Below are positions 6,501-22,594 of a stretch of DNA of 64,000 nt, in pieces. The stretch is from Candidatus Krumholzibacteriia bacterium (GTDB lineage: Bacteria > Krumholzibacteriota > Krumholzibacteriia > JAJRXK01). Made by a program: the position numbers and the translations under genes. Location: assembly GCA_041484665.1 (NCBI GenBank), contig JBGPIA010000002.1, positions 544,001 to 608,000 of the forward strand, given 5' to 3'. Every line of letters starts with the position of its first letter. The first letter of the stretch is position 1. The notes below the pieces were generated by a model. It worked only from the letters and a program-made list of their open reading frames with translations, was not told the DNA's origin and searched no databases.

Positions 6501-7520
6501 CTACGGTGCCAGCTCGCCGACCTGGGCCGATCCGGCGCCCAGCTCCTCGCTCAGCCACCCGCCCAGCCCGACGCGACCACGTGTGCTACCGCGCGCGCGC
6601 AGCCGCAGCAGCACCCACGCCAGGAACCCCGACACCGCCAGTGCAGGATGCACCCCCATCAGGAAGCCGGCCAACGCCGCGGCCAGCAGCCACGCTGCGG
6701 TGCGGTCGGGGGTGCGCAGCGGCCGTGTGCCCGCGAGCAGACGCCCGCGCAGCGCGTCGATGCACGCCACGTGCAGCACGCCCGCGCTGCGGTAGCTGAC
6801 CCGGTAGATGGGGTAGTAGATGAGCGACGCCTGCGCCCGCAGCAGGTCCAGTCGCTGGCGGACGTCCAGCGCTCCGCGCGGGACCACGCGGGCGCAATGG
6901 TAGAGGCGCAGCGCCCGTTTGGCCGCGCTGAGCGGATGGACCACGGCGCATGCGATCTCGTCCCCACGCAACCGGTCGAGGTCGAGCGGTCGCAGCTGCA
7001 GGGTCGCGACGCGATCGGCAATGCCCGCCAGCCCGAAGTCGCGCGCGTCGCACGCGGGGCTCGACCAGGTCACGTCGCGCGCGACGACCTCCTCGACCCG
7101 GTCCTCGGGCGGCAGCTCCGACTTGGCTGGAGCCTGCTCCGCTGCGAGGCCCGGCGCGTGCGGCGGGCGCTCGCGGCGGACGCGGTAGCGCTGCCAGCCG
7201 ACCAACTTTCCCTGCAGCTCCCAGAACGGGAGATAGAACAGCTGCACGCTCTCGATCGCATAGCCGTGGACACCGCGCGCCGACAACAGCGCCGCCACAG
7301 CGCTCGCCGCCCGGCGCCGTCCGATGCGCCCCGCGGGGACGTGGGCCGCCACGCCCGAATCGCTGCGGCGCAGGCACTCGTAGCCGCAATACGAGCAGCG
7401 CAGCCGCGCCGGATCGCCGTCCACGGTTGCGAGCCCCCCGCCGCAACGCGGGCAGCCCAGGCCTAGCGCACGGACGGCCCTGGCCGCCTGACCGCCGCCC
7501 TCCGCCTGCGGCGCGCTCAC
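6501..7520 (-). CDS. Zinc-ribbon membrane protein, YdjG-like paralog 2
   Basis: CPRCG...CSYCG; 'FYLPFW'; 'IYYPIYRVSY...IDALRGRLLAG'; C-terminal TM segments. GTG start overlaps the upstream TGA, with RBS AAGGAG. Confidence 0.78.
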   Translation of the reverse strand: MSAPQAEGGGQAARAVRALGLGCPRCGGGLATVDGDPARLRCSYCGYECLRRSDSGVAAHVPAGRIGRRRAASAVAALLSARGVHGYAIESVQLFYLPFWELQGKLVGWQRYRVRRERPPHAPGLAAEQAPAKSELPPEDRVEEVVARDVTWSSPACDARDFGLAGIADRVATLQLRPLDLDRLRGDEIACAVVHPLSAAKRALRLYHCARVVPRGALDVRQRLDLLRAQASLIYYPIYRVSYRSAGVLHVACIDALRGRLLAGTRPLRTPDRTAAWLLAAALAGFLMGVHPALAVSGFLAWVLLRLRARGSTRGRVGLGGWLSEELGAGSAQVGELAP

Positions 7521-8272
7521 AGGCTCCTTCGGCCGGCACGCGAGGCCAGGAGCCCCGCACCGAGCAAGCACCCGCCGGCCGCCGCACGCCAGGCCGGATC
7601 GTGCACCGCCACTCCGGCGAGCAGCGAGAGCGTCAGGAAGGCCGCGAGGAACTGCACGCGTCGACCGTCCACCGGCGGCTGGAGGGCCGCGTCGGGCAGC
7701 GGCTCCAGCAGCACGCGCTCGGCCCCCGCCAGGTAGAACCCGCGCACCGTGGCCCCGGAGGTCTCCACGGTGAGTGGCGCCACCGACAGCCACACCAACC
7801 GCGCAGCCTCGATGGGCGCCTCGGGCTCCTCGAACGCGGCGCGCGCGGCCGCCAGAGCGTGCGGCAGATCGACGCCAGGTTGCGGCAGCGGCTCCAGACC
7901 GGCTGCGCGCGGATCGCCGCGCTGGACCAGCGGCGCCGCCGGCAGCCGCAGCAGGCGAGCGCCGGGCAGCGCATCCGCGGGCGCGGGCAGCACGTGCTCC
8001 TCACCCGCCCGCGAGACGATCTGCCACATGGCCACGCTGCGCGGCGGTTCGACATGGATGCGGAATCGGCGCGCGCCGGCCAGCAGCAGCGCGCGACGCG
8101 CCTGGTCCTGCGCGGCGACGGGCGATGCGATCAGGGGGACGACGAGCTCCTCGACCCCCGGGCTGCCCGAGACCTCGGCCAGCCCCTGGCAGTAGTCGCA
8201 GGTGAAGCGCGTGAGCGAAGCGGCGATGCGATGGGGCGCGCCGCAGCGCGGACAGCAGACCAGCACCGCCAC
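7517..8272 (-). CDS. Zinc-ribbon membrane protein, YdjG-like paralog 1
   Basis: CPRCG...CDYC at the N-terminus and two C-terminal hydrophobic helices. Starts 6 nt after the SPFH stop. Confidence 0.75.
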   Translation of the reverse strand: MAVLVCCPRCGAPHRIAASLTRFTCDYCQGLAEVSGSPGVEELVVPLIASPVAAQDQARRALLLAGARRFRIHVEPPRSVAMWQIVSRAGEEHVLPAPADALPGARLLRLPAAPLVQRGDPRAAGLEPLPQPGVDLPHALAAARAAFEEPEAPIEAARLVWLSVAPLTVETSGATVRGFYLAGAERVLLEPLPDAALQPPVDGRRVQFLAAFLTLSLLAGVAVHDPAWRAAAGGCLLGAGLLASRAGRRSL

Positions 8273-8278
8273 GGAGGA

Positions 8279-9421
8279 TCAACCTCCCGGCGTGCTCGCC
8301 GGTCCGGAGGGTCCCCGCCCCGGGGAGGGCGGCTTGTGCTCCGCAGGCCCGGCCGCGTGCGGCCCGGCCGGCGCGGCACAGGCGGGACAGAACCGCGCTC
8401 CCGGCGGAAGGACCGCCGCACAGTCGACGCAGCGCGCCGGCGCTGTGGTGCTTGCGGCCGCGGCTGCCGACGCGTCGAGGCGGCCGCCGCAGGCGCTGCA
8501 GTAGCGCCCTGCGAGCACTCTCGCTCCACACGCTCCGCATCCCACAAGTCCGGTCGCGCCCACGCCCTGGGCGACCATGCCGGGCACCAGCAGTCCCAGC
8601 CCCAGCCCCACGCTCGCGTCCAGCGCCGCGCCGGTCGTGCCGCCGCCGGGCGAGCCCGCCCCGGCGCCGCCGGGCAGTTTCCCGATCGCGCGTGCGAGCT
8701 GGTACTGCATGTAGGTGGGCATGTCCTTCACCAGGGCGAGGCTGCCCTGGGAGTCGACCATCGCCTGGACCTCCTCGGGGGGGGTGATCGAGGTGACGTA
8801 GAGATCGCTGAGATGCAGGCCGTGCTTCTCGAAGTCGCCGGCGAGCCGGCCCAGCAGCGCGTGCCCCAGCTCGTCGTAGATCGCTGGCAGGTCCAGCACG
8901 CTGGTCAGCGTCTCGCCGATGTAGTCATTGAGTCGGGCCACGATCACGTCGCGCAGGAACTCCGTGGCATCGCTCGTGGCATAGGTGCCGCGCGTGCCCA
9001 CCATCGCGTGGATGAAGCGCTCGGCGTCGGCCACGGCGAACGTGATCTGCCCGTGAGCGCGCAGCCGCACGTGCCCGAGCTGCTGGTCCTTGAAAATGAC
9101 CGGCTCCCGCGTGCCCCACTTGAGGTTGGTGAACGTCTTGCGATTGACGAAGTAGACTTCGCAACGGAACGGGCTCTTGAACCCCCAGGGCAGGCTGAGG
9201 GCGGCCGTCAACAGCGGGAGGTTCTTCGAGTTCAGGGTGGCGCGCCCGGCCCGGAATCGGTCGTGGGCCTTGCCGCCACAGAAGAAGATCGCCTCCTGGC
9301 TCTCCCGGACGATGAGCTGGGCGCCGAGCTTGATGTCGGCCGAGCCCTCCGGCGGCAGGCGGTGGACCATCTCCTCGCCTGTCTCGTCGAACCACTCCAG
9401 GATCTCAAGGAATGCCGACAT
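8279..9421 (-). CDS. SPFH/Band-7 domain protein (YdjI-like) with C-terminal double zinc ribbon
   Basis: 'GAQLIVRESQEAIFF', 'SPFRCEVYFVN', 'KWGTREPV..D', 'VTSITPPEEVQAMVD'; four CxxC at the C-terminus. ATG 9421 follows GGAGGAG. Confidence 0.9.
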   Translation of the reverse strand: MSAFLEILEWFDETGEEMVHRLPPEGSADIKLGAQLIVRESQEAIFFCGGKAHDRFRAGRATLNSKNLPLLTAALSLPWGFKSPFRCEVYFVNRKTFTNLKWGTREPVIFKDQQLGHVRLRAHGQITFAVADAERFIHAMVGTRGTYATSDATEFLRDVIVARLNDYIGETLTSVLDLPAIYDELGHALLGRLAGDFEKHGLHLSDLYVTSITPPEEVQAMVDSQGSLALVKDMPTYMQYQLARAIGKLPGGAGAGSPGGGTTGAALDASVGLGLGLLVPGMVAQGVGATGLVGCGACGARVLAGRYCSACGGRLDASAAAAASTTAPARCVDCAAVLPPGARFCPACAAPAGPHAAGPAEHKPPSPGRGPSGPASTPGG

Positions 9422-13995: not shown

Positions 13996-14652
13996 ATGAT
14001 GCTCCGCAGCCCCAACGACCGGGCCCTCGATCACGACAGCCTCGAAACCCCGCCGGCCTCGCCGCAACGGCAGGTCGCGGCGCTGCGCCCACTGGCCAAT
14101 GGCGCCGGCGTGCTCGTCGCCCGCAGTCTTTCCCGCCTGCTGGACCGTCCCCTGCGCGTCACCAGCTGCCGGGTGGTGGTGGCCGAGCCGTTGGGAATGC
14201 TGCGCGACGTCGAGCCCGACTCCACCGGCCCGTTCGGGGTGCGCGTGCCGCTGCGTGGTGACGTCCCGGGCTGGATCGCGGTCCAGATCCCGCGCGCCCG
14301 CCTCGGCGAGGTCCAGGAGGACCTGGTGCGCGGCCTGGCGCTCCCAGCACCCCTGCGCGATCAAATCCTCGACTCGGCCCTCCTCGAGATGGGCGCCATC
14401 GCGGCCGGCTCGTTCACAACGGTGATGAGCGGAGTTCTACAACTCGATGTGAATCCGATGGTTCCGCAGCTCGGACTGGAGCGCCCCGCCAGCCCCGCGG
14501 CCGGAGCTGGCGCGGGCAATCAGGCCCCAGCCGAGGTGCTGCTCGTCCACGTGCAGCTTGCCGACCTGCAAGGTGGCCCGCTGTGCAACCTGCTGCTCGT
14601 GCCCGATGTCCCCGGCCTGCGCCGGATGGTCGCGATCCTGGAGGAGGGTTGA
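13996..14652 (+). CDS. CheC-like protein with degenerate phosphatase motifs
   Basis: CheC-like pattern 'AALRPLANGAG..ARSLSRLL' and 'DSALLEMGAIAAGSF', C-terminal 'LLLVPD..GLRRMV'. Directly upstream of a CheY-like gene. Confidence 0.72.
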   Translation: MMLRSPNDRALDHDSLETPPASPQRQVAALRPLANGAGVLVARSLSRLLDRPLRVTSCRVVVAEPLGMLRDVEPDSTGPFGVRVPLRGDVPGWIAVQIPRARLGEVQEDLVRGLALPAPLRDQILDSALLEMGAIAAGSFTTVMSGVLQLDVNPMVPQLGLERPASPAAGAGAGNQAPAEVLLVHVQLADLQGGPLCNLLLVPDVPGLRRMVAILEEG

Positions 14653-14654
14653 GC

Positions 14655-15020
14655 GTGGCCCGGGTGCTGATCGTCGACGACTCGACCTTCTCAAGGCTGC
14701 GCCTGCGCGCGATGCTCGAGTCGGTCGGCGCCGAGGTGATCGGCGAGGCCGAGAGCGGTGACGCAGGCGTGGCGCTCTGCGCCCAGCTCGGCCCTGACCT
14801 CGTGACCATGGACTGCGATCTGCCCGGATTGTCGGGGATCGAGGCCACCCGCCGCATCGTCGCTTCCGACCCTCAGGCGCGCGTGCTCATGATCAGCGCG
14901 CTGGCGCACCGCCAAGTCGTCCTGGATGCGATGCGGGCCGGGGCGCGCGACTTCCTCACCAAGCCGGTCGACCCCGCGCAGCTGCGCGCCTCGCTCGAAC
15001 GCGTCCTGGGGGACGTGTAG
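14655..15020 (+). CDS. CheY-like single-domain response regulator
   Basis: IVDD, phospho-acceptor VTMD, ISA and TKP are all present. Confidence 0.92.
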   Translation: MARVLIVDDSTFSRLRLRAMLESVGAEVIGEAESGDAGVALCAQLGPDLVTMDCDLPGLSGIEATRRIVASDPQARVLMISALAHRQVVLDAMRAGARDFLTKPVDPAQLRASLERVLGDV

Positions 15021-15038
15021 CGAACGCGTGGCAGACGC

Positions 15039-15878
15039 TCAGGCGTGCGCTGCCGCAAGCAGGGGCCGCAGGAAGGCGATCGCACGCGCCACGACGTCTT
15101 CGGGCTCGCTCGCGGTGCCGATGGCATCGAGCAGAGCGCTCCCCACCACGGCGCCGTCGGCGAAGCGCGCGACGCCGGCCACGTCCTCCGGACGCGCGAT
15201 ACCAAAGCCCACGGCGACGGGGACATCGCTCACCGCGCGCAGTCGCTGCACGGTTTGCTGCGCCGCGGGATCCAATCGCCCGCGGGCGCCGGTGACGCCC
15301 AGCGTCGACACGCAGTAGACGAAGCCGGTACTGGCGGCCGCCGCCGCTTCGACGCGGGCGCGGTCGCTGGTCGCTGCGATCAGGAAGCACGTCTCGATGC
15401 GCGCGGCGCGCGCGATCGCCAGCCACTCCCCCGCCTCCTCCGGCACCAGATCGGTCACGAGTGCCGCGGACACGCCCGCGGCGCGCAGGGCTGGCGGCAG
15501 GCCAAGCAGCCCGTGGGCGAGCAGCGGATTGAGGTAGCTGAACAGGATGCGGGGGCAGCCGGGAGCGCGCCCGTGCAGGGAGGCCAGCACCGCGCGCAGC
15601 GTGACGCCCTGGCGCAGTGCGGCGTCGATGGTGCGCTGGATGGTCGGACCGTCGGCTACCGGATCGCTGAACGGGACGCCCAACTCAATGGCGTCCACCC
15701 CGAGCTCCTCGAGCGCCGCCATCAGCGCCAGGCTCGCCGGGAGCGTCGGATACCCCATCGTGAGGTACGGAATCAGGGCGCACCGGCCACGCGCGCGAGC
15801 GGCGAGCAGGGCCTCCCGCGCCGAGCGAACCGCTGGGTCGCTATGCGCGTCCCGCGGCGGGTCCGTCGCATCGGGCAT
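15039..15878 (-). CDS. trpA: Tryptophan synthase alpha chain
   Basis: 'IELGVPFSDPVADGPTIQ', 'GVTG', 'VGFGI', 'ADGAVVGSA'. Confidence 0.95.
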   Translation of the reverse strand: MPDATDPPRDAHSDPAVRSAREALLAARARGRCALIPYLTMGYPTLPASLALMAALEELGVDAIELGVPFSDPVADGPTIQRTIDAALRQGVTLRAVLASLHGRAPGCPRILFSYLNPLLAHGLLGLPPALRAAGVSAALVTDLVPEEAGEWLAIARAARIETCFLIAATSDRARVEAAAAASTGFVYCVSTLGVTGARGRLDPAAQQTVQRLRAVSDVPVAVGFGIARPEDVAGVARFADGAVVGSALLDAIGTASEPEDVVARAIAFLRPLLAAAHA

Positions 15879-15906
15879 GGAATCCGTAGGTGGCTGGGGG
15901 GAGCGG

Positions 15907-16755
15907 TCAGCCGGCCAGCGCGCGCGCCCGGCGGAAGCTGTCGCGCGCCTGTTCCTTCATCGCCAAGCCATCGTAGGCCATCCCGAGCTGGTAGTGCACG
16001 CGCCCGTCGTCCTCCAGCTGGCGCGCGGCCTTGGTCAGCTCGTCGGCCGCCTCCCGGTAGTGGCCGAGCTTGTTGAGCGCCATCCCCAGGTAGAGGCGCG
16101 CCCGGGCATGCTCCGGGTCGTGGCGCAGCGCCTCGCGGAACGACGACACGGCGTCTTGCGTCATCCCCCGCCGGAAGCGGCACTGCCCGAGGAGGTAGTG
16201 CGCCTGCGCGTGCGCGGGATCGTGGTGGAGCGCCTCCGCGAGCAGCCCCTCGGCCGCCAGCAGGTTGCCCTGGCGCAGGCGCACCACGGCGAGGTTGAAG
16301 CTGGGCTCGAAACCGGGGGCCAGCTCGGCGCAGCGTTGGAGGGCCTTGACGGCCTCTTCGTAGCGGCCCAGCTCGCCGTACAGCGCGCCCAGATTGAGAT
16401 GCGCCGCGGGCTCGCGCGGCGCGAGCTGGATCGCGCGCCGGAACGCGGCAATCGCCTCGGTCGCGCGACCCTGCAGGTCCAGGACCACGCCCAGATTCGT
16501 GTGGACGCGCGCCTCCTCGAAGCGCTCGCGCAGGACGCGCCGCAGCAACCCCTCGGCCTCGTCGAGGCGCCGCTGCTTCATGCGGATGAGCGCCAGACGG
16601 TAGGCCGCATCGGCATCCGCCGGGGCCGCTTCGAGCTGCGACGACAACGCCGCTGCGGTGTCCTCCAGCTCGGCGCGCTGCTCCGGCGCACGCGCCTGCC
16701 GCAGCGTCGCCATCTGCGCGGCCGTTTCCTTCGTCCGTGTTGCCATCGGTTGCAT
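15907..16755 (-). CDS. Cytoplasmic TPR repeat protein
   Basis: About seven consecutive TPR-like repeats and no signal peptide. Start could be 16746 or 16713. Confidence 0.85.
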   Translation of the reverse strand: MQPMATRTKETAAQMATLRQARAPEQRAELEDTAAALSSQLEAAPADADAAYRLALIRMKQRRLDEAEGLLRRVLRERFEEARVHTNLGVVLDLQGRATEAIAAFRRAIQLAPREPAAHLNLGALYGELGRYEEAVKALQRCAELAPGFEPSFNLAVVRLRQGNLLAAEGLLAEALHHDPAHAQAHYLLGQCRFRRGMTQDAVSSFREALRHDPEHARARLYLGMALNKLGHYREAADELTKAARQLEDDGRVHYQLGMAYDGLAMKEQARDSFRRARALAG

Positions 16756-16879
16756 GTGTTACGCCGCCACGTGGGGCGGAAGGAGTGGCGGCGGCGCGAA
16801 CGTATGCGCTGGCGTGACGGCTGTCAACGCACAGACACACGGAATGCAGCGCGCCGGGCGCACGCCGCGCGCGCAGGGG

Positions 16880-18544
16880 TCAGTGGGCGACCTTGAGGTT
16901 GAGGACGATGCGGATCGTCTTGCCGTCGGCCAGCGCGTCGGCGTCGAGCGTGATCGGCACCTCGATGATCTTGGCGTTCGCGAGGCGGCTGGCGAAGCCG
17001 AACTGTGACGTCTCCGACGCCCTCTCCGCGGCGGCCTTCGATGCCGCGGCGTCGCTGCTCAGCTTGCGGGGATCGGTGATGAGCTCCAAGTGGACCTCGG
17101 GAGGGGGCGGCTGCGACCCCGCCACGCCGGCCGCCATGGCCGGCGCGGCCGCCGCCGCCGGTGCCACCGGTGCCGTCGGCGCTCCCTGGGGACGCACCGG
17201 CGGCGGAGCTGCTGCGGGACGTGCGGTCGCGGCATCGGCCGCCCCGGCCACGTCCTTGCCGTCCAGGCTCACCATCCGCCCGTAGCTGCTGCCGTAGGTG
17301 AGGGGATCGTCGCCGTGCGCAGGGCCCGTCTGCGCCCCCTCGACGGTCGGGGGGGCGGAAGTCTCGCGGGGCCTCTGGCCATCCATGGGCGAGAGCACAT
17401 TGTCGACCAGGTCGGAGACGAGCTTCTGCTCGGGTCCCTCCGCCTGCGGCGTCGCAGCCGGCCTGCGCGGCGTGCCCGTGTGGAGCGCGGGCGCGGCGGG
17501 CGGGCGCTGGCTGGGTGGCGCGGCTGCCGGCCGTGGCCCGGAGGGAGCCGAGGGTGGGCTGCTCCGTGGCCCTGCGGCAGCGCCTTGGACCGTAGCGCGC
17601 GGACCCGAGGGAGGCGAGTGCACCGGGCCGCGCAGTCCGGGCCCGGCCGCCGGCGCCGCGCTGCGCGGTCCCGCGGGTACCGCCGCAGCGGGCACCGGTC
17701 CCAGAGGCCCGGACGGGGAAGCCGAGGCCCGCAGTGGAGACGCCGCGCCGGCGGTCCCGGGGCGGACCGCGCCCAGGATCGCGTCCAGCACGGCTCCGTC
17801 GCTCTGGGCGGGCTCGTGCGCCCCCGCGCGCGGGGCGACCGCCACGGGCTCGTGCACCTCCGGAGGCGCGTCGAGCTGCTGCAAGCGCGCGGCGATGTCG
17901 GCGCCGAAGAGGGAGGTTTCCTCCTCGCGCTCGGGCGGCCTGGACTGCGTCGCCCCCTCCTCCCCCGTGGTCAGGCGGCGGTAGATCATCTTGCTGATGC
18001 GATGCAGCGTCTCGTAGACCCCCTCGCCGGTGAGGGCGGACGCCTCGAAGCTCGGGACTGCGCGCGGGTTGAGCTGCCCTTCCATCTCCTCGACCGGATC
18101 GCAGTTGGGTAGATCGCGCTTGTTCCACTGCATCACGAGCGGCAGCGTCTCCAGGTCGAGACCGATCTCCTCGAGATTCTCGCGGAGGTTCTGCAGGCTG
18201 TCGCGGTTGTCCTGCATGCGACCCTGTTCGCTGTCGGCGACGAACACCACTCCATCGACGCCCTTGAGGACCATCTTGCGGGTGGCGTTGTAGTAGACCT
18301 GCCCGGGGACGGTGTAGAGCATGAAGCGGGTCTTGAATCCGTCGATCAGGCCCAGCTCCAGGGGCAGGAAGTCGAAGAAGATCGTGCGGTCGGTCTGCGT
18401 GCGCAGGGAGATCATCTTGCCCGAGTACTCGAGCGGGATCTTGGAGTAGATCCACTCCAGATTGGTGGTCTTCCCGCTGAGCGCCGGACCGTAGTAGACG
18501 ATCTTGGCGTTGATCTCCTTGCCGCTGTAGTTGTAGACGACCAT
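16880..18544 (-). CDS. mglA: MglA-family small GTPase with long Pro/Ala-rich linker and small C-terminal domain
   Basis: 'KEINAKIVYYGPALSGKTTN', 'DRTIFFDFLP', 'LYTVPGQVYYNATRK', 'DGVVFVADS', 'NKRD'. Residues ~195-520 are low complexity. Confidence 0.9.
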   Translation of the reverse strand: MVVYNYSGKEINAKIVYYGPALSGKTTNLEWIYSKIPLEYSGKMISLRTQTDRTIFFDFLPLELGLIDGFKTRFMLYTVPGQVYYNATRKMVLKGVDGVVFVADSEQGRMQDNRDSLQNLRENLEEIGLDLETLPLVMQWNKRDLPNCDPVEEMEGQLNPRAVPSFEASALTGEGVYETLHRISKMIYRRLTTGEEGATQSRPPEREEETSLFGADIAARLQQLDAPPEVHEPVAVAPRAGAHEPAQSDGAVLDAILGAVRPGTAGAASPLRASASPSGPLGPVPAAAVPAGPRSAAPAAGPGLRGPVHSPPSGPRATVQGAAAGPRSSPPSAPSGPRPAAAPPSQRPPAAPALHTGTPRRPAATPQAEGPEQKLVSDLVDNVLSPMDGQRPRETSAPPTVEGAQTGPAHGDDPLTYGSSYGRMVSLDGKDVAGAADAATARPAAAPPPVRPQGAPTAPVAPAAAAAPAMAAGVAGSQPPPPEVHLELITDPRKLSSDAAASKAAAERASETSQFGFASRLANAKIIEVPITLDADALADGKTIRIVLNLKVAH

Positions 18545-18602
18545 CGGGCCTCACTCAGCAGAAGAACGTCTGGTTCGGGGAGTCCTGTCGGTGCAGCGAA
18601 AC

Positions 18603-18617
18603 GCAATCTCCATGCCA
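18603..18617 (-). promoter_or_regulatory. sigma54 promoter of the mglA-like gene
   Basis: Minus strand TGGCATGGAGATTGC, near consensus, ~60 nt upstream of the ATG. Confidence 0.75.
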
Positions 18618-18772
18618 CCCGCGGCGTTGCGCCACGCGGCCCCCCTAGCTGGGGTTCACCCCCCATCTCCGGTCCCGGCGAGAGCCGGCGGCTCTCCGTA
18701 GCCGACCCTTCCCGGCCGGTCGGCGCCCCCCGAGGCGTGCCCGCGCAGCCCCACGCCCACCCCACCCCAATC

Positions 18773-18788
18773 GGGCACCTGGCTTGCA
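18773..18788 (+). promoter_or_regulatory. sigma54 promoter of the orphan gene 18871-19401
   Basis: GGGCACCTGGCTTGCA = GG-N10-GC with GGCAC and TTGCA, ~80 nt upstream of the ATG. Confidence 0.72.
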
Positions 18789-18870
18789 AGGGCTGGTCAG
18801 GCTTGCCGGGGCCAGCCGCGCGCTGCGGCGTCCGCGGCGGGGCGTCCGGCCCCATCCACCGGGGGGATCC

Positions 18871-19401
18871 ATGGTCAGCAACACCGACAAGATCCTGACC
18901 GAGATGTTCGCGCGGCTGCTGAACATCAAGGTCAGCCCTCCGGTCGTGAAGAAGCTCACCTATGTGATCGACGGCGTGATCACCAAGGTCCAGGGCTCCC
19001 TGGACCTCGAGACGGTCCAAGGCCAGAACACATTCCGAGCACTCATCTGCTCGATGGTCGTCCACGGCTGGGGCCTGGGCATGCACCCCGACAACAACCC
19101 CGCCCAGAACCAGGACGGGCGCGACGTGGAGGTCCAGGTCTGCAAGGACATCCTCGTGCCCGTGAGCAGCCTGCAGTCCCTGCGCTACATCAAGAAGGAC
19201 AAGTACGGACGGGTGAAGAAGGCTCTCTTCGAGCCCGACCAGAACGCGCGCATCCGCAGCCACATCGACAGCATCCTGTCGGAGATCAGCCGTACGAAGT
19301 GGGGCGAGGGCGAGGAGCCCCGGGGCGAGAAGCGCACCGAGAGCGGGGACGGCGAGAGTGTCGAGGGCGGCGAGGGCGGCGAGACGGGCGAGGAGTCCTA
19401 G
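18871..19401 (+). CDS. Hypothetical protein of unrecognised family with acidic Gly/Glu tail
   Basis: Strong GC3 codon bias and Lys/Ile/Asn-rich composition, unlike the shadow ORFs. ATG follows GGGGGGA. Confidence 0.8.
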   Translation: MVSNTDKILTEMFARLLNIKVSPPVVKKLTYVIDGVITKVQGSLDLETVQGQNTFRALICSMVVHGWGLGMHPDNNPAQNQDGRDVEVQVCKDILVPVSSLQSLRYIKKDKYGRVKKALFEPDQNARIRSHIDSILSEISRTKWGEGEEPRGEKRTESGDGESVEGGEGGETGEES

Positions 19402-20246
19402 CGGCGCGGTCCGGCCTCCAGCAGCGGGGCCAGTCGCTTGCGCAGCACGATCCGCCGGCCACCCTCCTCGTACCGGACCTCATCCACGAGCGACTCCATC
19501 AGGAACAGCCCACGTCCGCCGCCACGCATCCGATTCTCGGGGGCGAGCGGCGACGGCACTGCGTCGCGAGCGAAGCCCTCTCCCTGGTCTTCCACCTGCA
19601 GCGTGAACCCTTCGGCGTCGAGCTCCAGGCGCAGATGGACGACCTTGGCCGGATCCCAGCCGTTGCCATGCCCCATCGCGTTGGTCACGGCTTCGTCGAT
19701 CACCAGCGGCAGATCGCCGCGCACCATCTGCAAGGGATAGCTCAGACTGTCGAAGCGCTCGCACAAGAGCTGGATGACCCCCGGCAGAAGCTCCCTGCGC
19801 GTGGGAAGCGTGAGCTCGTGGAGCTCACGCCGCCCGTGCACGACACTGCCGGGGAAGAGCGCCGAGAGGTAGGCGAGATCGCGGAATGCGCTGAGCGCTC
19901 CCAGCACAGGCCAGGGTGGGCGCAGCACGGTGCACGCCCCTTCCCAGACCAACTCGCGCTCCTCCTCGGCCGAAACCGAGCGTGTGGCGATCGCCACGCG
20001 GGCCTGTGGGCTGGCGTCCAGCACGCGTGCGTGCCAGCCGCAGTGCAGCTGCGCCCGCGTGGCCGCCGCAATCATCACCCGCGCTGGGGACGGGTCATCG
20101 CCCGCGAGCGCGGCGCCCAGCGCCTCCAGATCGGAGTGCTCGCGCCACTGCACGCCGGCAAAGCCTTGGGCCTGGCGCAGCTCGTCGGCTAGACCGCGGT
20201 CCAGCGCGACGAGGTGCACGACGCATGGCGCCCGATTGCTGCGCAT
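19398..20246 (-). CDS. RsbW/SpoIIAB-like anti-sigma-factor kinase (HATPase_c_2) with degenerate receiver-like N-terminus
   Basis: 'DEAVTNAMGHGN', 'VEDQGEGF', 'GGRGLFLMESLVDEVRY'. Confidence 0.82.
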   Translation of the reverse strand: MRSNRAPCVVHLVALDRGLADELRQAQGFAGVQWREHSDLEALGAALAGDDPSPARVMIAAATRAQLHCGWHARVLDASPQARVAIATRSVSAEEERELVWEGACTVLRPPWPVLGALSAFRDLAYLSALFPGSVVHGRRELHELTLPTRRELLPGVIQLLCERFDSLSYPLQMVRGDLPLVIDEAVTNAMGHGNGWDPAKVVHLRLELDAEGFTLQVEDQGEGFARDAVPSPLAPENRMRGGGRGLFLMESLVDEVRYEEGGRRIVLRKRLAPLLEAGPRR

Positions 20247-20276
20247 CGCACGGCCTCGTCCGCTGGCAGCCGGATC

Positions 20277-21104
20277 TCAGAAGATCGGCTGACCGTTGGC
20301 AAGGATCTCGTTGAGGGCCTCGCGGAAGTGGTTGGTGCTGTTGGCCACCTCGGGCGTGACCTTCTCCTTGTAGAGCTCCCAGGATTTCTTGATATCGTGT
20401 CCCAGGGCTTGCACCAGCGTGCCGCCGGCCAGCGCCTTATCGCGCTTCTCACGGTTGTAGGCCAGGATGTCGCTCACCAACGCCCGGGCCAGGCGGCGCG
20501 CCTTCTCCTGCTCCTGCCGCACGCGCGGGTCGACCGGCTCCTGGGGCTGCGCCTGGGGTGCCGGGCGGTCGAGGTCGACTTCGACGAAGCGGGCTGCGAC
20601 TGGCTCGGCGGCGCGCGCAGGCCCACCCGGTGCGGAAGCCGGCGGGGCTGCGGGACGCGCGGCGCCGATCATGGGACCGCTGGAACGCTCGATCTCCAGG
20701 TCCAGGTCGGGCATCGTCTGCGTCGAGGCCGAGGGCGCCGCGGGGCCGCGTGACGGCGCGGCCGCGGGGGCCGACCCGGAGGCCGGCCGCGCCGAACGGG
20801 TGCCCAGATCGATGTCGCGGTAACCGTACCCAGGGGGCGCCGCCGACGCGACGCTCGCGGCCGCGGGCCGCGCAGGCGCGCTCGTGGACGCCTGCGGCCG
20901 CACCGGTACCTGCGCCGTCTCGGCCGCCGCGGCGCGCGGACGCACCTCGGCCGGCCCCGGCGCGGGCTGCGCGTCACGCCGCTGCGTGCCGTCAACCGCG
21001 AAGATCGAAGCGCACTGCACGCAGCGGACGCGGATCCGCTGCTGCGGCACGCGGGCGGGATCGAGGCGATAGCGGGTCTTGCATTCTGCACACTGGACGA
21101 TCAT
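20277..21104 (-). CDS. MJ0042-type zinc-finger protein with Pro/Ala linker and C-terminal RomX-like helical domain
   Basis: N-terminal 'MIVQCAECKTRY..D.....RIRVRCVQCASIF'; C-terminal 'KARRLARALVSDILAYN...SWELYKEKV...NHFREALNEIL'. RBS AGGAGAGG. Confidence 0.8.
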   Translation of the reverse strand: MIVQCAECKTRYRLDPARVPQQRIRVRCVQCASIFAVDGTQRRDAQPAPGPAEVRPRAAAAETAQVPVRPQASTSAPARPAAASVASAAPPGYGYRDIDLGTRSARPASGSAPAAAPSRGPAAPSASTQTMPDLDLEIERSSGPMIGAARPAAPPASAPGGPARAAEPVAARFVEVDLDRPAPQAQPQEPVDPRVRQEQEKARRLARALVSDILAYNREKRDKALAGGTLVQALGHDIKKSWELYKEKVTPEVANSTNHFREALNEILANGQPIF

Positions 21105-21193
21105 TGCCTCTCCTGGTTGCATCGGGCAGAAGGTTCCCGGCCGCCAGCCTTGCCGCCGCCTGCCAGCGGCGGGCGGGGCCGGGGCGGACGAGC

Positions 21194-21209
21194 TGCAAGG
21201 ATCAAGCCA
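21194..21209 (-). promoter_or_regulatory. sigma54 promoter of the zinc-finger/RomX-like and RsbW-like genes
   Basis: Minus strand TGGCTTGATCCTTGCA = GG-N10-GC, ~90 nt upstream of the ATG. Confidence 0.68.
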
Positions 21210-21260
21210 AGGCCGCCCTCGTGAGGACGTCTGGGGAGCGCTCCGCCCGCCGCCAGGCGG

Positions 21261-22157
21261 TCACAGCGAGGCCAGCTCTCCGCTGACGCGCTCGCGCGTC
21301 TGCTCATTCCAGCCGCTGAGCACCAACAGCGCCTCTTCGTAGCTCTCGGCCGTCCGCGTGACCAGCTCGTCCATCTCGGCCAGCGGCAGGCCGGTCATCT
21401 CCCAGGCCTGGGGCAGGATCGGCGGAATCCTGGTGTTGCCGTCCTCGCCCAGCCGCAGCCCGCAGGCGATGCTGTTCGCGACGTGCACGGCGGCCACGAA
21501 GTCGCCGTGGCCGTCGGCGCAGCGCGGGTCGTGGTGCCAGGCGACCGCCTCCAGGTAGCGGCCCGGCAGGTTCCAGTGCTTGCAGAGCATGCGCCCGATG
21601 CGCGCGTGGTTGACCCCCAGGAGCTTGTTCTCGACCTCGATCATCTGCAGTCCACTCGCCTTCACCTCGCCCAGGATCTGGTCCATCTCCTGGGGGAAGT
21701 GCTCGAGCAAGACGATCTTCCCGATGTCGTGGATGAGGCCGCCGACGAAGTACTCCTCTTCCCCTTCGAGACCGCGCAGGCGGGCGATCGACTGGGCGGC
21801 AGATGCGGCGCCCAGGCTGTGCTTCCAGAACTCATTGACGTCGAAGGACGCCAGATGCCGCCCTTCCTTGAACAGGTCCATGACCGAAGTGGCGAGGATG
21901 AGATCGCGCAGGGAGCGCATGCCCACCAGGCTCACCGCCCGCGTGACGGTCTCGATCTTCTCCTGGAAGCCGTAGTGCACCGAGTTCACCAGGCGCAGCA
22001 GCTTGACCGTGATGACCTGGTCCTGGGAGATCACCGCCGCGATTTCGGCGGCGGAGGTCTTCGGGTTGCGCATCAGATCGCTGACGCGCTTGTAGATGAT
22101 GGGCAAGGTCGGCAGGTCGTTCACCTGGCGCAGGACCTTCTGGATGCGGTCTCTCAC
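21261..22157 (-). CDS. HDOD domain protein
   Basis: 'LPTLP', 'KLLRLVNS..YG', 'FWKHS', 'GLIHDIGK', 'HARIG..L..HWNLP', 'WHHDP'. Confidence 0.93.
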   Translation of the reverse strand: MRDRIQKVLRQVNDLPTLPIIYKRVSDLMRNPKTSAAEIAAVISQDQVITVKLLRLVNSVHYGFQEKIETVTRAVSLVGMRSLRDLILATSVMDLFKEGRHLASFDVNEFWKHSLGAASAAQSIARLRGLEGEEEYFVGGLIHDIGKIVLLEHFPQEMDQILGEVKASGLQMIEVENKLLGVNHARIGRMLCKHWNLPGRYLEAVAWHHDPRCADGHGDFVAAVHVANSIACGLRLGEDGNTRIPPILPQAWEMTGLPLAEMDELVTRTAESYEEALLVLSGWNEQTRERVSGELASL

Positions 22158-22594
22158 GAGATCTCCTTCTCCGCCCCGATCAACCCCTGCCGGCGCAGCA
22201 CGGCCCGCAGCAGCGCCTCCATCACCGGGTTGCCCCGCGTGTCGCCGAAGCGCTCGGCCTGCGCCAGGATCAGCCGGCGCGTCTGCGCGAGTTCGCGCGG
22301 GGCGAGCGGGGCGCCGGACTCGCTCACGACGCCGCGCTCCGCAGCGGTGCCCGGCGCGGTGGCGGCGTCGGTCGACGTCGCCCCGCCGGTCGCCGTGGCA
22401 GCGCCGGTTGCGGTGCGGTGTGCCGCTGCGTCACCGCGCAGGACGAGCACGACGACGCCACGCCCGGCCAGCACCTCCAGATGATTGCGGGTGAGGGCCG
22501 TGCCCTCGGCCAGCAAGACCTGCCCGCCCGGCAACGTCACGGGCTCCGCCAGGACGTCTGCGGGCCGCGCCAGATGCAGGGGAACTTTCTTCAT
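22154..22594 (-). CDS. Small hypothetical protein coupled to the HDOD gene
   Basis: 'VLAEPV...GQVLLAEGTALT...LEVL..RGV' resembles the N-terminal module often found on HD-GYP proteins. TGA/GTG overlap with the HDOD gene. Confidence 0.7.
   Translation of the reverse strand: MKKVPLHLARPADVLAEPVTLPGGQVLLAEGTALTRNHLEVLAGRGVVVLVLRGDAAAHRTATGAATATGGATSTDAATAPGTAAERGVVSESGAPLAPRELAQTRRLILAQAERFGDTRGNPVMEALLRAVLRRQGLIGAEKEIS

Follow-up and report, generated by a model that had tools for sequence, protein, structure and literature searches.

A long-tailed MglA paralogue linked to type IVa pilus genes, encoded beside a zinc ribbon-RomX fusion in Krumholzibacteriota

Do the genes that cluster around an MglA-family GTPase encode one cell-polarity switch, or do only some of them belong together, and what would these control? 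The question is raised by a 64,000-nucleotide stretch of DNA from a Candidatus Krumholzibacteriia bacterium (the window, G000:C2:544001-608000; the genome is 93.65% complete). Positions 13996-22594 of the window hold trpA and all genes listed in an earlier note, which had read them as a co-regulated MglA polarity module. The genes named there, coding for an MglA, a tetratricopeptide repeat (TPR) protein, an orphan, a zinc-finger/RomX-like protein, an RsbW-like kinase, an HDOD protein with its partner and a CheC-like/CheY-like pair, are all present; trpA had been omitted. Gene calls for the genome came from a home-made caller, and some starts are off. The GTPase proved to be a second MglA with a long tail, here called MglA2, and the RomX-like protein a fusion of a zinc ribbon to a RomX domain, here called ZnR-RomX. 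The reading that we prefer, with about even confidence, is that these two add a further level of control over type IVa pili beside an ordinary mglB-mglA system. The phylum offers natural experiments on MglA switches and their positioning outside the myxobacteria.

The second MglA and its tail

The mglA2 gene (window 16880-18544, minus strand) encodes a protein of 554 amino acids. Its G domain (aa 1-190; 17975-18544, minus) aligns without gaps to MglA of solved structure (PDB sequence comparison, E 3e-74) and is 58% identical to the G domain of the canonical MglA1. The latter is encoded in a canonical mglB-mglA operon at G000:C2:668044-669275, 107 kb from the window, and because of this pair the MglA of the window must be regarded as a paralogue. 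The mglB of that operon is the only Roadblock gene of the genome, so that the reported absence of MglB holds for the window and not for the genome. Most of 61 genomes carry two MglA genes. When 74 G domains were placed in a tree, the intact MglA2 sequences, 44 in number, grouped in one clade with a support of 100/100, separate from MglA1, while eight MglA2 copies from family f2 and two decayed MglA1 sequences fell on long branches. MglA2 is an old paralogue.

The G1 P-loop (GPALSGKTT) and the G4 motif (NKRD) of MglA2 are intact. The arginine finger R53 (TDRT) and TVPGQ82, numbered as in Myxococcus xanthus MglA, are also retained; such an intrinsic arginine finger and TVPGQ define group-1 MglA (PMC4316618). 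The earlier assignment to the MglA family was right, but the protein is not a plain small GTPase. Small MglA proteins are shorter than 240 aa and coupled to mglB, whereas MglA2 is much longer and has no adjoining mglB. Among 488 MglA-clade sequences 39 were longer than 240 aa (PMC4316618).

The tail of about 365 aa is disordered and rich in proline and alanine, the linker consisting of 22% Ala and 17% Pro. It carries four conserved motifs in fixed order (16883-17410, minus): VD.VL (aa 379), YG[RH]xV[DE]L (aa 421), [FL]IxDP (aa 488) and a C-terminal strand-helix-strand element (aa 523-552). A hidden Markov model of the C-terminal motif matched 44 of 53 MglA rows, pseudo-GTPases included; the misses were mostly truncated rows and members of family f6, in which the motif has diverged. 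With this model no second carrier was found among the called proteins of the genome, the motif had no sequence match in the PDB, and the last 126 aa gave no Pfam match. A word search of low sensitivity returned three matches. In an AlphaFold2 (AF2) model of a 339-aa orthologue the G domain was followed by a disordered linker and by 30 terminal residues with a predicted local distance difference test score (pLDDT) of 82-85, in which no strands paired within the chain. From this model we infer that the C-terminal motif may pair with a second chain.

In family f2 the protein has become a pseudo-GTPase (loci L046, L047, L049-L052, L054 and L056). GKT is replaced by GKR or GKS-A, and the P-loop threonine, switch I and Q82 are lost while the C-terminal motif is kept. 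Of 68 further f2 genomes, 48 have this form in a well-conserved state, and a near-perfect sigma-54 site precedes it. In genome G029 mglA2 (L039:9521-11795) runs into the next gene, possibly through a frameshift or an assembly error.

Co-loss with type IV pili and conserved promoter motifs

The distribution of MglA2 was compared with that of the pilus protein PilM after 70 genomes had been added to the first set; in these 70, PilM was scored first and MglA2 second. Genome G036 was left out (64% complete, locus unassembled). Both proteins were found in 99 of the 130 scored genomes and neither in 28. Three genomes (G004, G112 and G124; 88-93% complete) had MglA2 alone, and PilM alone did not occur. 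Among the 20 extra f2 genomes that were scored as lacking MglA2, four were checked at the locus and 16 by genome search alone. In the first set eight genomes had deleted mglA2 while retaining the TPR gene, the orphan gene and a decayed ZnR-RomX. All eight are without PilM and canonical PilT and have FlhA; the four MglA2-less genomes that were inspected carry only a PilT-like gene of 38-43% identity, located in another operon. Because MglA2 is lost together with the pilus genes, it likely helps to control type IV pili, in agreement with the pilus link that had been suggested before. A flagellar role of the core was rejected since these eight genomes without MglA2 have FlhA, and families f7 (0/3) and f8 (0/5) show the reverse, lacking FlhA yet retaining MglA2.

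Family f6 (loci L038, L039, L041-L044 and L195; L168-L171) provides a further comparison. Neither a Roadblock/MglB gene (0/11) nor the canonical MglA1 was found in its genomes. A sub-lineage, comprising six of them and G172, retains intact MglA2 and PilM without detectable MglB, and the four f6 genomes that were inspected carry a full pilus operon.

Three transcription units of the cluster had been reported to carry sigma-54 motifs. By a count of the sigma-54 consensus, as used in the first scan, the window contained 23 matches against 24.6 expected, which is at chance level. This count was therefore replaced by conservation tests upstream of orthologues, in which a site of the type GG-N10-GC (-24/-12) scoring at least 8 of 10 was taken as conserved. 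By this measure the three motifs stand. The one before mglA2 (18602-18617, minus) was found in 45 of 51 loci against 3.1 expected, the one before the znR-romX(-rsbW) unit (21194-21209, minus) in 42 of 56 against 3.1, with loss in family f2, and the one before the orphan (18773-18788, plus) in 37 of 59 against 3.5. The control genes gave 1/48 (recG), 3/23 (valS), 1/22 (L28), 2/21 (ftsZ) and 0/22 (mglA1), and no canonical sigma-54 site was conserved before mglB.

A matrix trained on the relatives alone was then applied to the 2717 upstream regions of this genome, which has rpoN. It placed znR-romX first, mglA2 fourth, pilM seventh, pilB tenth and the orphan 55th. Genome-wide there were 37 strong sites, against 5 in shuffled sequences. 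The predicted regulon also takes in flagellar and unrelated genes and the gene upstream of rpoN.

ZnR-RomX, the proposed circuit and its rivals

ZnR-RomX (20277-21104, minus) consists of an MJ0042-type zinc ribbon, a Pro/Ala linker and a C-terminal RomX domain. The RomX likeness noted earlier was confirmed: the last 80 aa match RomX of PDB entry 8ZNA (profile, E 4.3e-13 over 71 residues). The zinc ribbon has the CxxC..CxxC pattern of MJ0042 and scored 29.7 bits with TIGR02098 (cut-off 20.9). It resembles PDB entry 2NB9 (E 1e-3), which we take to be ZitP, and, in a weak match (E 0.08), GltJ/AgmX of entry 7ZOK. The fusion is the sole RomX protein, with one copy each in 58 of 61 genomes. The RomX region matched 1,126 proteins, and a zinc ribbon was present in nearly all of the 120 matches listed. 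According to clusters in the ESM Atlas, similar zinc-ribbon proteins occur mostly in Gemmatimonadota, so the fusion may reach beyond the phylum. The ZnR gene of genome G008 (L012:10926-11783) has no detectable RomX domain; here too a frameshift or assembly error is possible.

Residues R204, R207 and D212 correspond to R11, R14 and D19 in helix 1 of RomX, which are needed for MglA-GTP binding or exchange activity (bioRxiv 2024.02.20.581209). RomX binds the receiver of RomR via the basic residue R76 of helix 3 (same source), and this residue has no counterpart here, the helix ending in NEILANGQPIF. The view that RomX is a guanine nucleotide exchange factor is disputed; a second paper describes it as an effector of MglA-GTP and not an exchange factor (PMC13408092). 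A RomX that occurs without detectable RomR and is fused to a likely recruiter of the GTPase-activating protein (GAP) is a natural experiment on this contested role. A RomR-like protein, searched for by its layout (N-terminal receiver plus disordered linker, <620 aa), was not seen among 49 listed of the 63 receiver proteins of the incomplete genome (93.65%).

The zinc ribbon of GltJ recruits MglB by binding its C-terminal helix (PMC11135422), and the MglB of this genome has retained an acidic extension at its C-terminus. Apart from that of ZnR-RomX, the called genes include no MJ0042-type zinc ribbon, and the gliding function that had been offered as an alternative to pili found no support.

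The following scheme would connect these parts. Under sigma-54, of which the motifs are observed, mglA2 and znR-romX would be expressed along with pilB and pilM. MglA2 would cycle between GTP and GDP, as its nucleotide-binding motifs suggest, and might be held at the pole or at the pilus machine by its tail, with the last motif possibly pairing with a second chain. By analogy with homologues the RomX domain would be an effector that binds MglA-GTP, and the zinc ribbon, like that of GltJ, would recruit MglB in trans. ZnR-RomX could then act as a RomR-free adaptor with one arm that stabilizes the GTP state and another that brings in the GAP; its main partner may be the canonical MglA1. A more far-reaching version, which we regard as doubtful, holds that Krumholzibacteriota use a RomR-free pilus circuit of two GTPases. 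In it the MglA2 tail would self-assemble as a polar landmark replacing RomR, ZnR-RomX would be the two-arm adaptor, the kinase would feed back to transcription, and either MglA1/MglB or the GTPase activity of MglA2 would be dispensable depending on the family.

Several observations weigh against a joint role of MglA2 and ZnR-RomX in pilus control. The co-loss amounts to about two independent events, one in a clade of family f2, which had a support of 0.85 in a tree of rough quality, and one in an f6 sub-lineage. Both lineages that lost MglA2 are also without intact mglA1/mglB, and therefore MglA2 is singled out by family f6 alone. The gene order around the locus, with recG, valS and ftsZ nearby, is widely kept across the phylum, so that synteny alone proves little. 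Since the regulon of sigma-54 is broad in this genome, possession of the same motif says little about a common pathway. The similarity of the zinc ribbon to that of GltJ is weak as well, and the domain family has varied ligands. Interaction, localization and expression of the two proteins are predictions from sequence.

The conservation of the RomX domain can be read both ways. In favour of a link to MglA, the domain decays where all intact MglA is gone, to E values of 1e-19 to 1e-25 (in one case 6e-7), compared with mostly 1e-30 or better elsewhere. Against a link to MglA2, in family f6 the YN residues of RomX are lost in 11 of 11 genomes and D19 in 6 of 11, even where MglA2 is intact. Because this decay of helix 1 and YN follows the loss of MglA1/MglB, RomX may not serve MglA2. 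Its tie to MglA1/MglB appears to be no weaker than that to MglA2.

These data bear on a rival explanation, that MglA2 is independent of MglB and RomX and acts like SofG or as a tail-driven organizer of pilus ATPases, while ZnR-RomX serves MglA1/MglB and merely shares locus and sigma factor. We consider it a tentative possibility. It would explain why a full pilus operon persists together with intact MglA2 in f6 genomes in which neither Roadblock nor MglA1 was found, why helix 1 of RomX decays there, and why f2 proteins with a dead G domain retain the C-terminal motif. On the other hand, all f6 genomes (11/11) still have ZnR-RomX, and its decay is more advanced in those that have lost MglA2 as well. 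The proposed link to PilB/PilT sorting is a parallel to SofG drawn from PMC4316618.

A less probable rival, which we judge unlikely, treats the locus as a conserved neighbourhood of separate sigma-54 genes, with MglA2 unrelated to pili and the co-loss a by-product of two lifestyle changes. The small number of MglA2 losses fits this explanation, as does the fact that the orphan, the TPR gene and ZnR-RomX all outlast the deletion of mglA2. Moreover, in several families mglA2 and the orphan are separated by inserted transporter and glycosyltransferase genes. It is difficult to reconcile with the complete absence of PilM-only genomes among the 130 and with the action of the characterized group-1 MglA proteins on pili or motility (PMC4316618, PMC7519303). 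A RomX homologue adjoining an MglA gene by accident also seems unlikely.

A third rival concerns the RsbW-like gene (19398-20246, minus), located directly downstream of znR-romX. The earlier identification as an RsbW-like kinase holds for the ATPase part (HATPase_c_2, E 9e-22), which has DEAVTNA, DQGEG and GRG boxes in the aligned rows; the protein scores below the equivalog cut-offs. It was incomplete in that the N-terminus is a degenerate receiver (profile; best structure match 4DAD, E 1.7e-5), and no cognate STAS protein or sigma factor occurs among the recurrent neighbours of the locus. The ATPase part is a variable member of the locus. One might propose that RomX binds this pseudo-receiver, as it binds the receiver of RomR in Myxococcus, and so wires the Mgl state to transcription through an anti-anti-sigma switch. 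The position behind RomX, the failure to see a RomR-like protein among the listed receiver proteins, and the loss of the pseudo-receiver in five f6 genomes without MglA2 are compatible with this idea, as is a gene at C3:196596, presumably STAS-like, with a sigma-54 motif of rank 24. The idea is nevertheless quite improbable: the kinase is missing from 20 of 59 loci, a few of which stop at a contig edge and many of which have RomX fully conserved, the receiver-binding R76 is absent and the receiver loss is a single event. A complex prediction with pseudo-receiver, MglA2, RomX and GTP gave a score of 0.01 and was counted neither way.

The preferred reading, an MglA2/ZnR-RomX layer on pilus control, can be set beside known systems. 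As in the M. xanthus module, a group-1 MglA is present that has the arginine finger and TVPGQ; also shared are a RomX with the R11/R14/D19 residues, a separate mglB-mglA operon, a connection with type IVa pili and an SgmX-shaped TPR gene beside pilB. Different from it are the second MglA with a 365-aa motif tail, the fusion of RomX to a zinc ribbon beside MglA2, the lack of a RomR-like protein among the inspected receivers, the conserved sigma-54 motifs, and the existence of lineages in which MglB is not detected or the GTPase of MglA2 is dead. SofG of M. xanthus and the Bdellovibrio MglA are likewise tied to pili and have no coupled mglB (PMC4316618, PMC7519303). Unlike them MglA2 has a long four-motif tail and sits with ZnR-RomX; the likeness to SofG is one of description.

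The MJ0042-type ribbon and flexible linker of ZnR-RomX recall the GltJ/AgmX switch and ZitP, and in GltJ too the same protein has a predicted MglA-GTP-binding part (PMC11135422). In contrast to GltJ and ZitP, ZnR-RomX is soluble and its second domain is RomX instead of a GYF or membrane part, and no other MJ0042-type ribbon occurs among the called genes. In response regulators of Deltaproteobacteria a RomX fold is joined in tandem to a receiver and a zinc finger (bioRxiv 2024.02.20.581209). Here the chain has no receiver, a pseudo-receiver being encoded by the next gene, and unlike the deltaproteobacterial fusions ZnR-RomX adjoins an MglA paralogue. The hit table of that preprint may list such zinc-ribbon/RomX fusions.

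All parts belong to known families except the orphan and the tail motifs. A literature search, in which subscription papers were not covered, returned no paper on MglA in Krumholzibacteriota and no description of this arrangement; type IV pili in the phylum had one passing mention in PMC10581226. Families with pili and MglA2 and no detectable MglB, or with a dead GTPase and part of the tail kept, serve as further natural experiments. The proteins are small and soluble, which makes them amenable to tests in vitro or in M. xanthus mutants. A predicted sigma-54 regulon and a signature gene present in single copy are further results for this uncultured phylum.

Neighbouring genes

Conservation of the neighbourhood was counted over 59 relative loci, with several misses due to contig ends. 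The orphan was found in 59 loci, the zinc ribbon and the RomX domain in 56 each, the RsbW ATPase in 39, trpA in 13, the HDOD gene in 4 and the CheC-like gene in none. The predicted conservation in relatives is thus found for MglA2, the orphan, ZnR-RomX and the TPR gene, across the phylum, and not for the CheC-like and HDOD genes. The putative co-regulation is similarly restricted to the three sigma-54 units.

The orphan (18871-19401, plus) has a conserved domain of 146 aa and an acidic tail. It is a single-copy signature gene of the phylum, present in 191 of 201 genomes and 124 of 125 good ones, and in 34 clusters of 1.84 billion. It can be used as a marker gene. No sequence match was obtained in Pfam, NCBIfam or the PDB, and Foldseek gave no match at E<=0.001 with its AF2 model (pLDDT 78). 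For the three N-terminal helices VIA gave a best Z of 6.5, with many sigma region-2 domains among the matches, a likeness too weak to use, and fungal DUF6532 proteins, the top ESM Atlas matches, were not accepted as relatives. Where mglA2 is deleted the orphan is kept with undiminished conservation; it is independent of MglA2.

The TPR gene (15907-16755, minus; 282 aa, TPR Pfams) adjoins mglA2 at 39 of the 40 loci that were examined first and is kept after mglA2 deletion. It is preceded by a sigma-70-type motif (TTGACA-17-TACGTT; 16799-16827, minus) that scores at least 9 of 12 in 53 of 74 loci against 1.1 expected. A tree of orphan and TPR sequences mixed two TPR paralogues in f6, and only its f2 part was used. 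The earlier note had named SgmX as the TPR effector of M. xanthus MglA. In SgmX a TPR cluster at either end encloses a long middle part free of TPRs (1,060 aa; PMC7519303). The window protein is TPR throughout and does not share this layout of SgmX and Bd2492; the gene is probably a conserved neighbour and not a dedicated MglA2 effector. By its layout, a 530-aa protein with split N- and C-terminal TPR clusters, encoded just upstream of pilB (G000:C2:418551-420143; L166:18052-19644) and also present in four f6 genomes, appears to be the better SgmX candidate. Families f4, f6 and f7 have two more genes between mglA2 and the TPR gene (L025:11118-11777 and 17 other loci), one for a beta-rich protein that appears to be secreted and one for a single-domain receiver; the receiver also occurs in f3.

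The HDOD gene (21261-22157, minus; E 6e-64) and its coupled partner of 146 aa (22154-22594, minus) are sporadic neighbours that lie upstream of the promoter of znR-romX and belong to none of the sigma-54 units. Besides the four relative loci, HDOD was found in four f2 loci. Within f1, only the four relatives that have FlhA carry the HDOD and RsbW genes.

The CheC-like protein (13996-14652, plus) gave weak matches to NF041093 (E 4e-6) and Thermotoga maritima CheC (E 3e-5); the CheY-like gene follows at 14655-15020 (plus). Aligned to T. maritima CheC, and with what we take to be the ExxN definition of the active site, both phosphatase sites are incomplete (P for E in site 1, A for N in site 2). 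With this query no CheC-like protein was found in five flagellated relatives either. Neither this pair nor the HDOD pair has a sigma-54 site, and CheW or methyl-accepting chemotaxis proteins (MCPs) were not found in this 93.65%-complete genome. The CheC/CheY pair is a local insertion outside the conserved system, and the CheY-type inputs once proposed are not supported. A flagellar cluster at G000:C2:59638-112341 contains HDOD proteins and a single receiver, and the flagella apparently operate without a chemotaxis system.

The housekeeping gene trpA for tryptophan synthase alpha (15039-15878, minus; PF00290 Trp_syntA, E 7e-68) completes the span. Taken together, the TPR gene, the orphan, the HDOD pair, the CheC/CheY pair and trpA are likely neighbours and not dedicated parts. 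That the nine genes together make up a single co-regulated switch for polarity, having a TPR effector, partner-switching and CheY-type inputs, is hardly credible: they are physically clustered in this genome, and a different single-domain receiver follows mglA2 in f3, f4, f6 and f7, but the CheC-like gene is absent from the 59 relative loci and the HDOD gene is found in only 4, trpA lies inside the span, the TPR gene is under a sigma-70-type motif and independent of MglA2, the SgmX-shaped protein is encoded near pilB instead, and no CheW or MCP was found.

Elsewhere in the window an SPFH/Band-7 gene with a double zinc ribbon (6501-9421) lies with two neighbours that carry Cys motifs, an arrangement that is kept in family f1.

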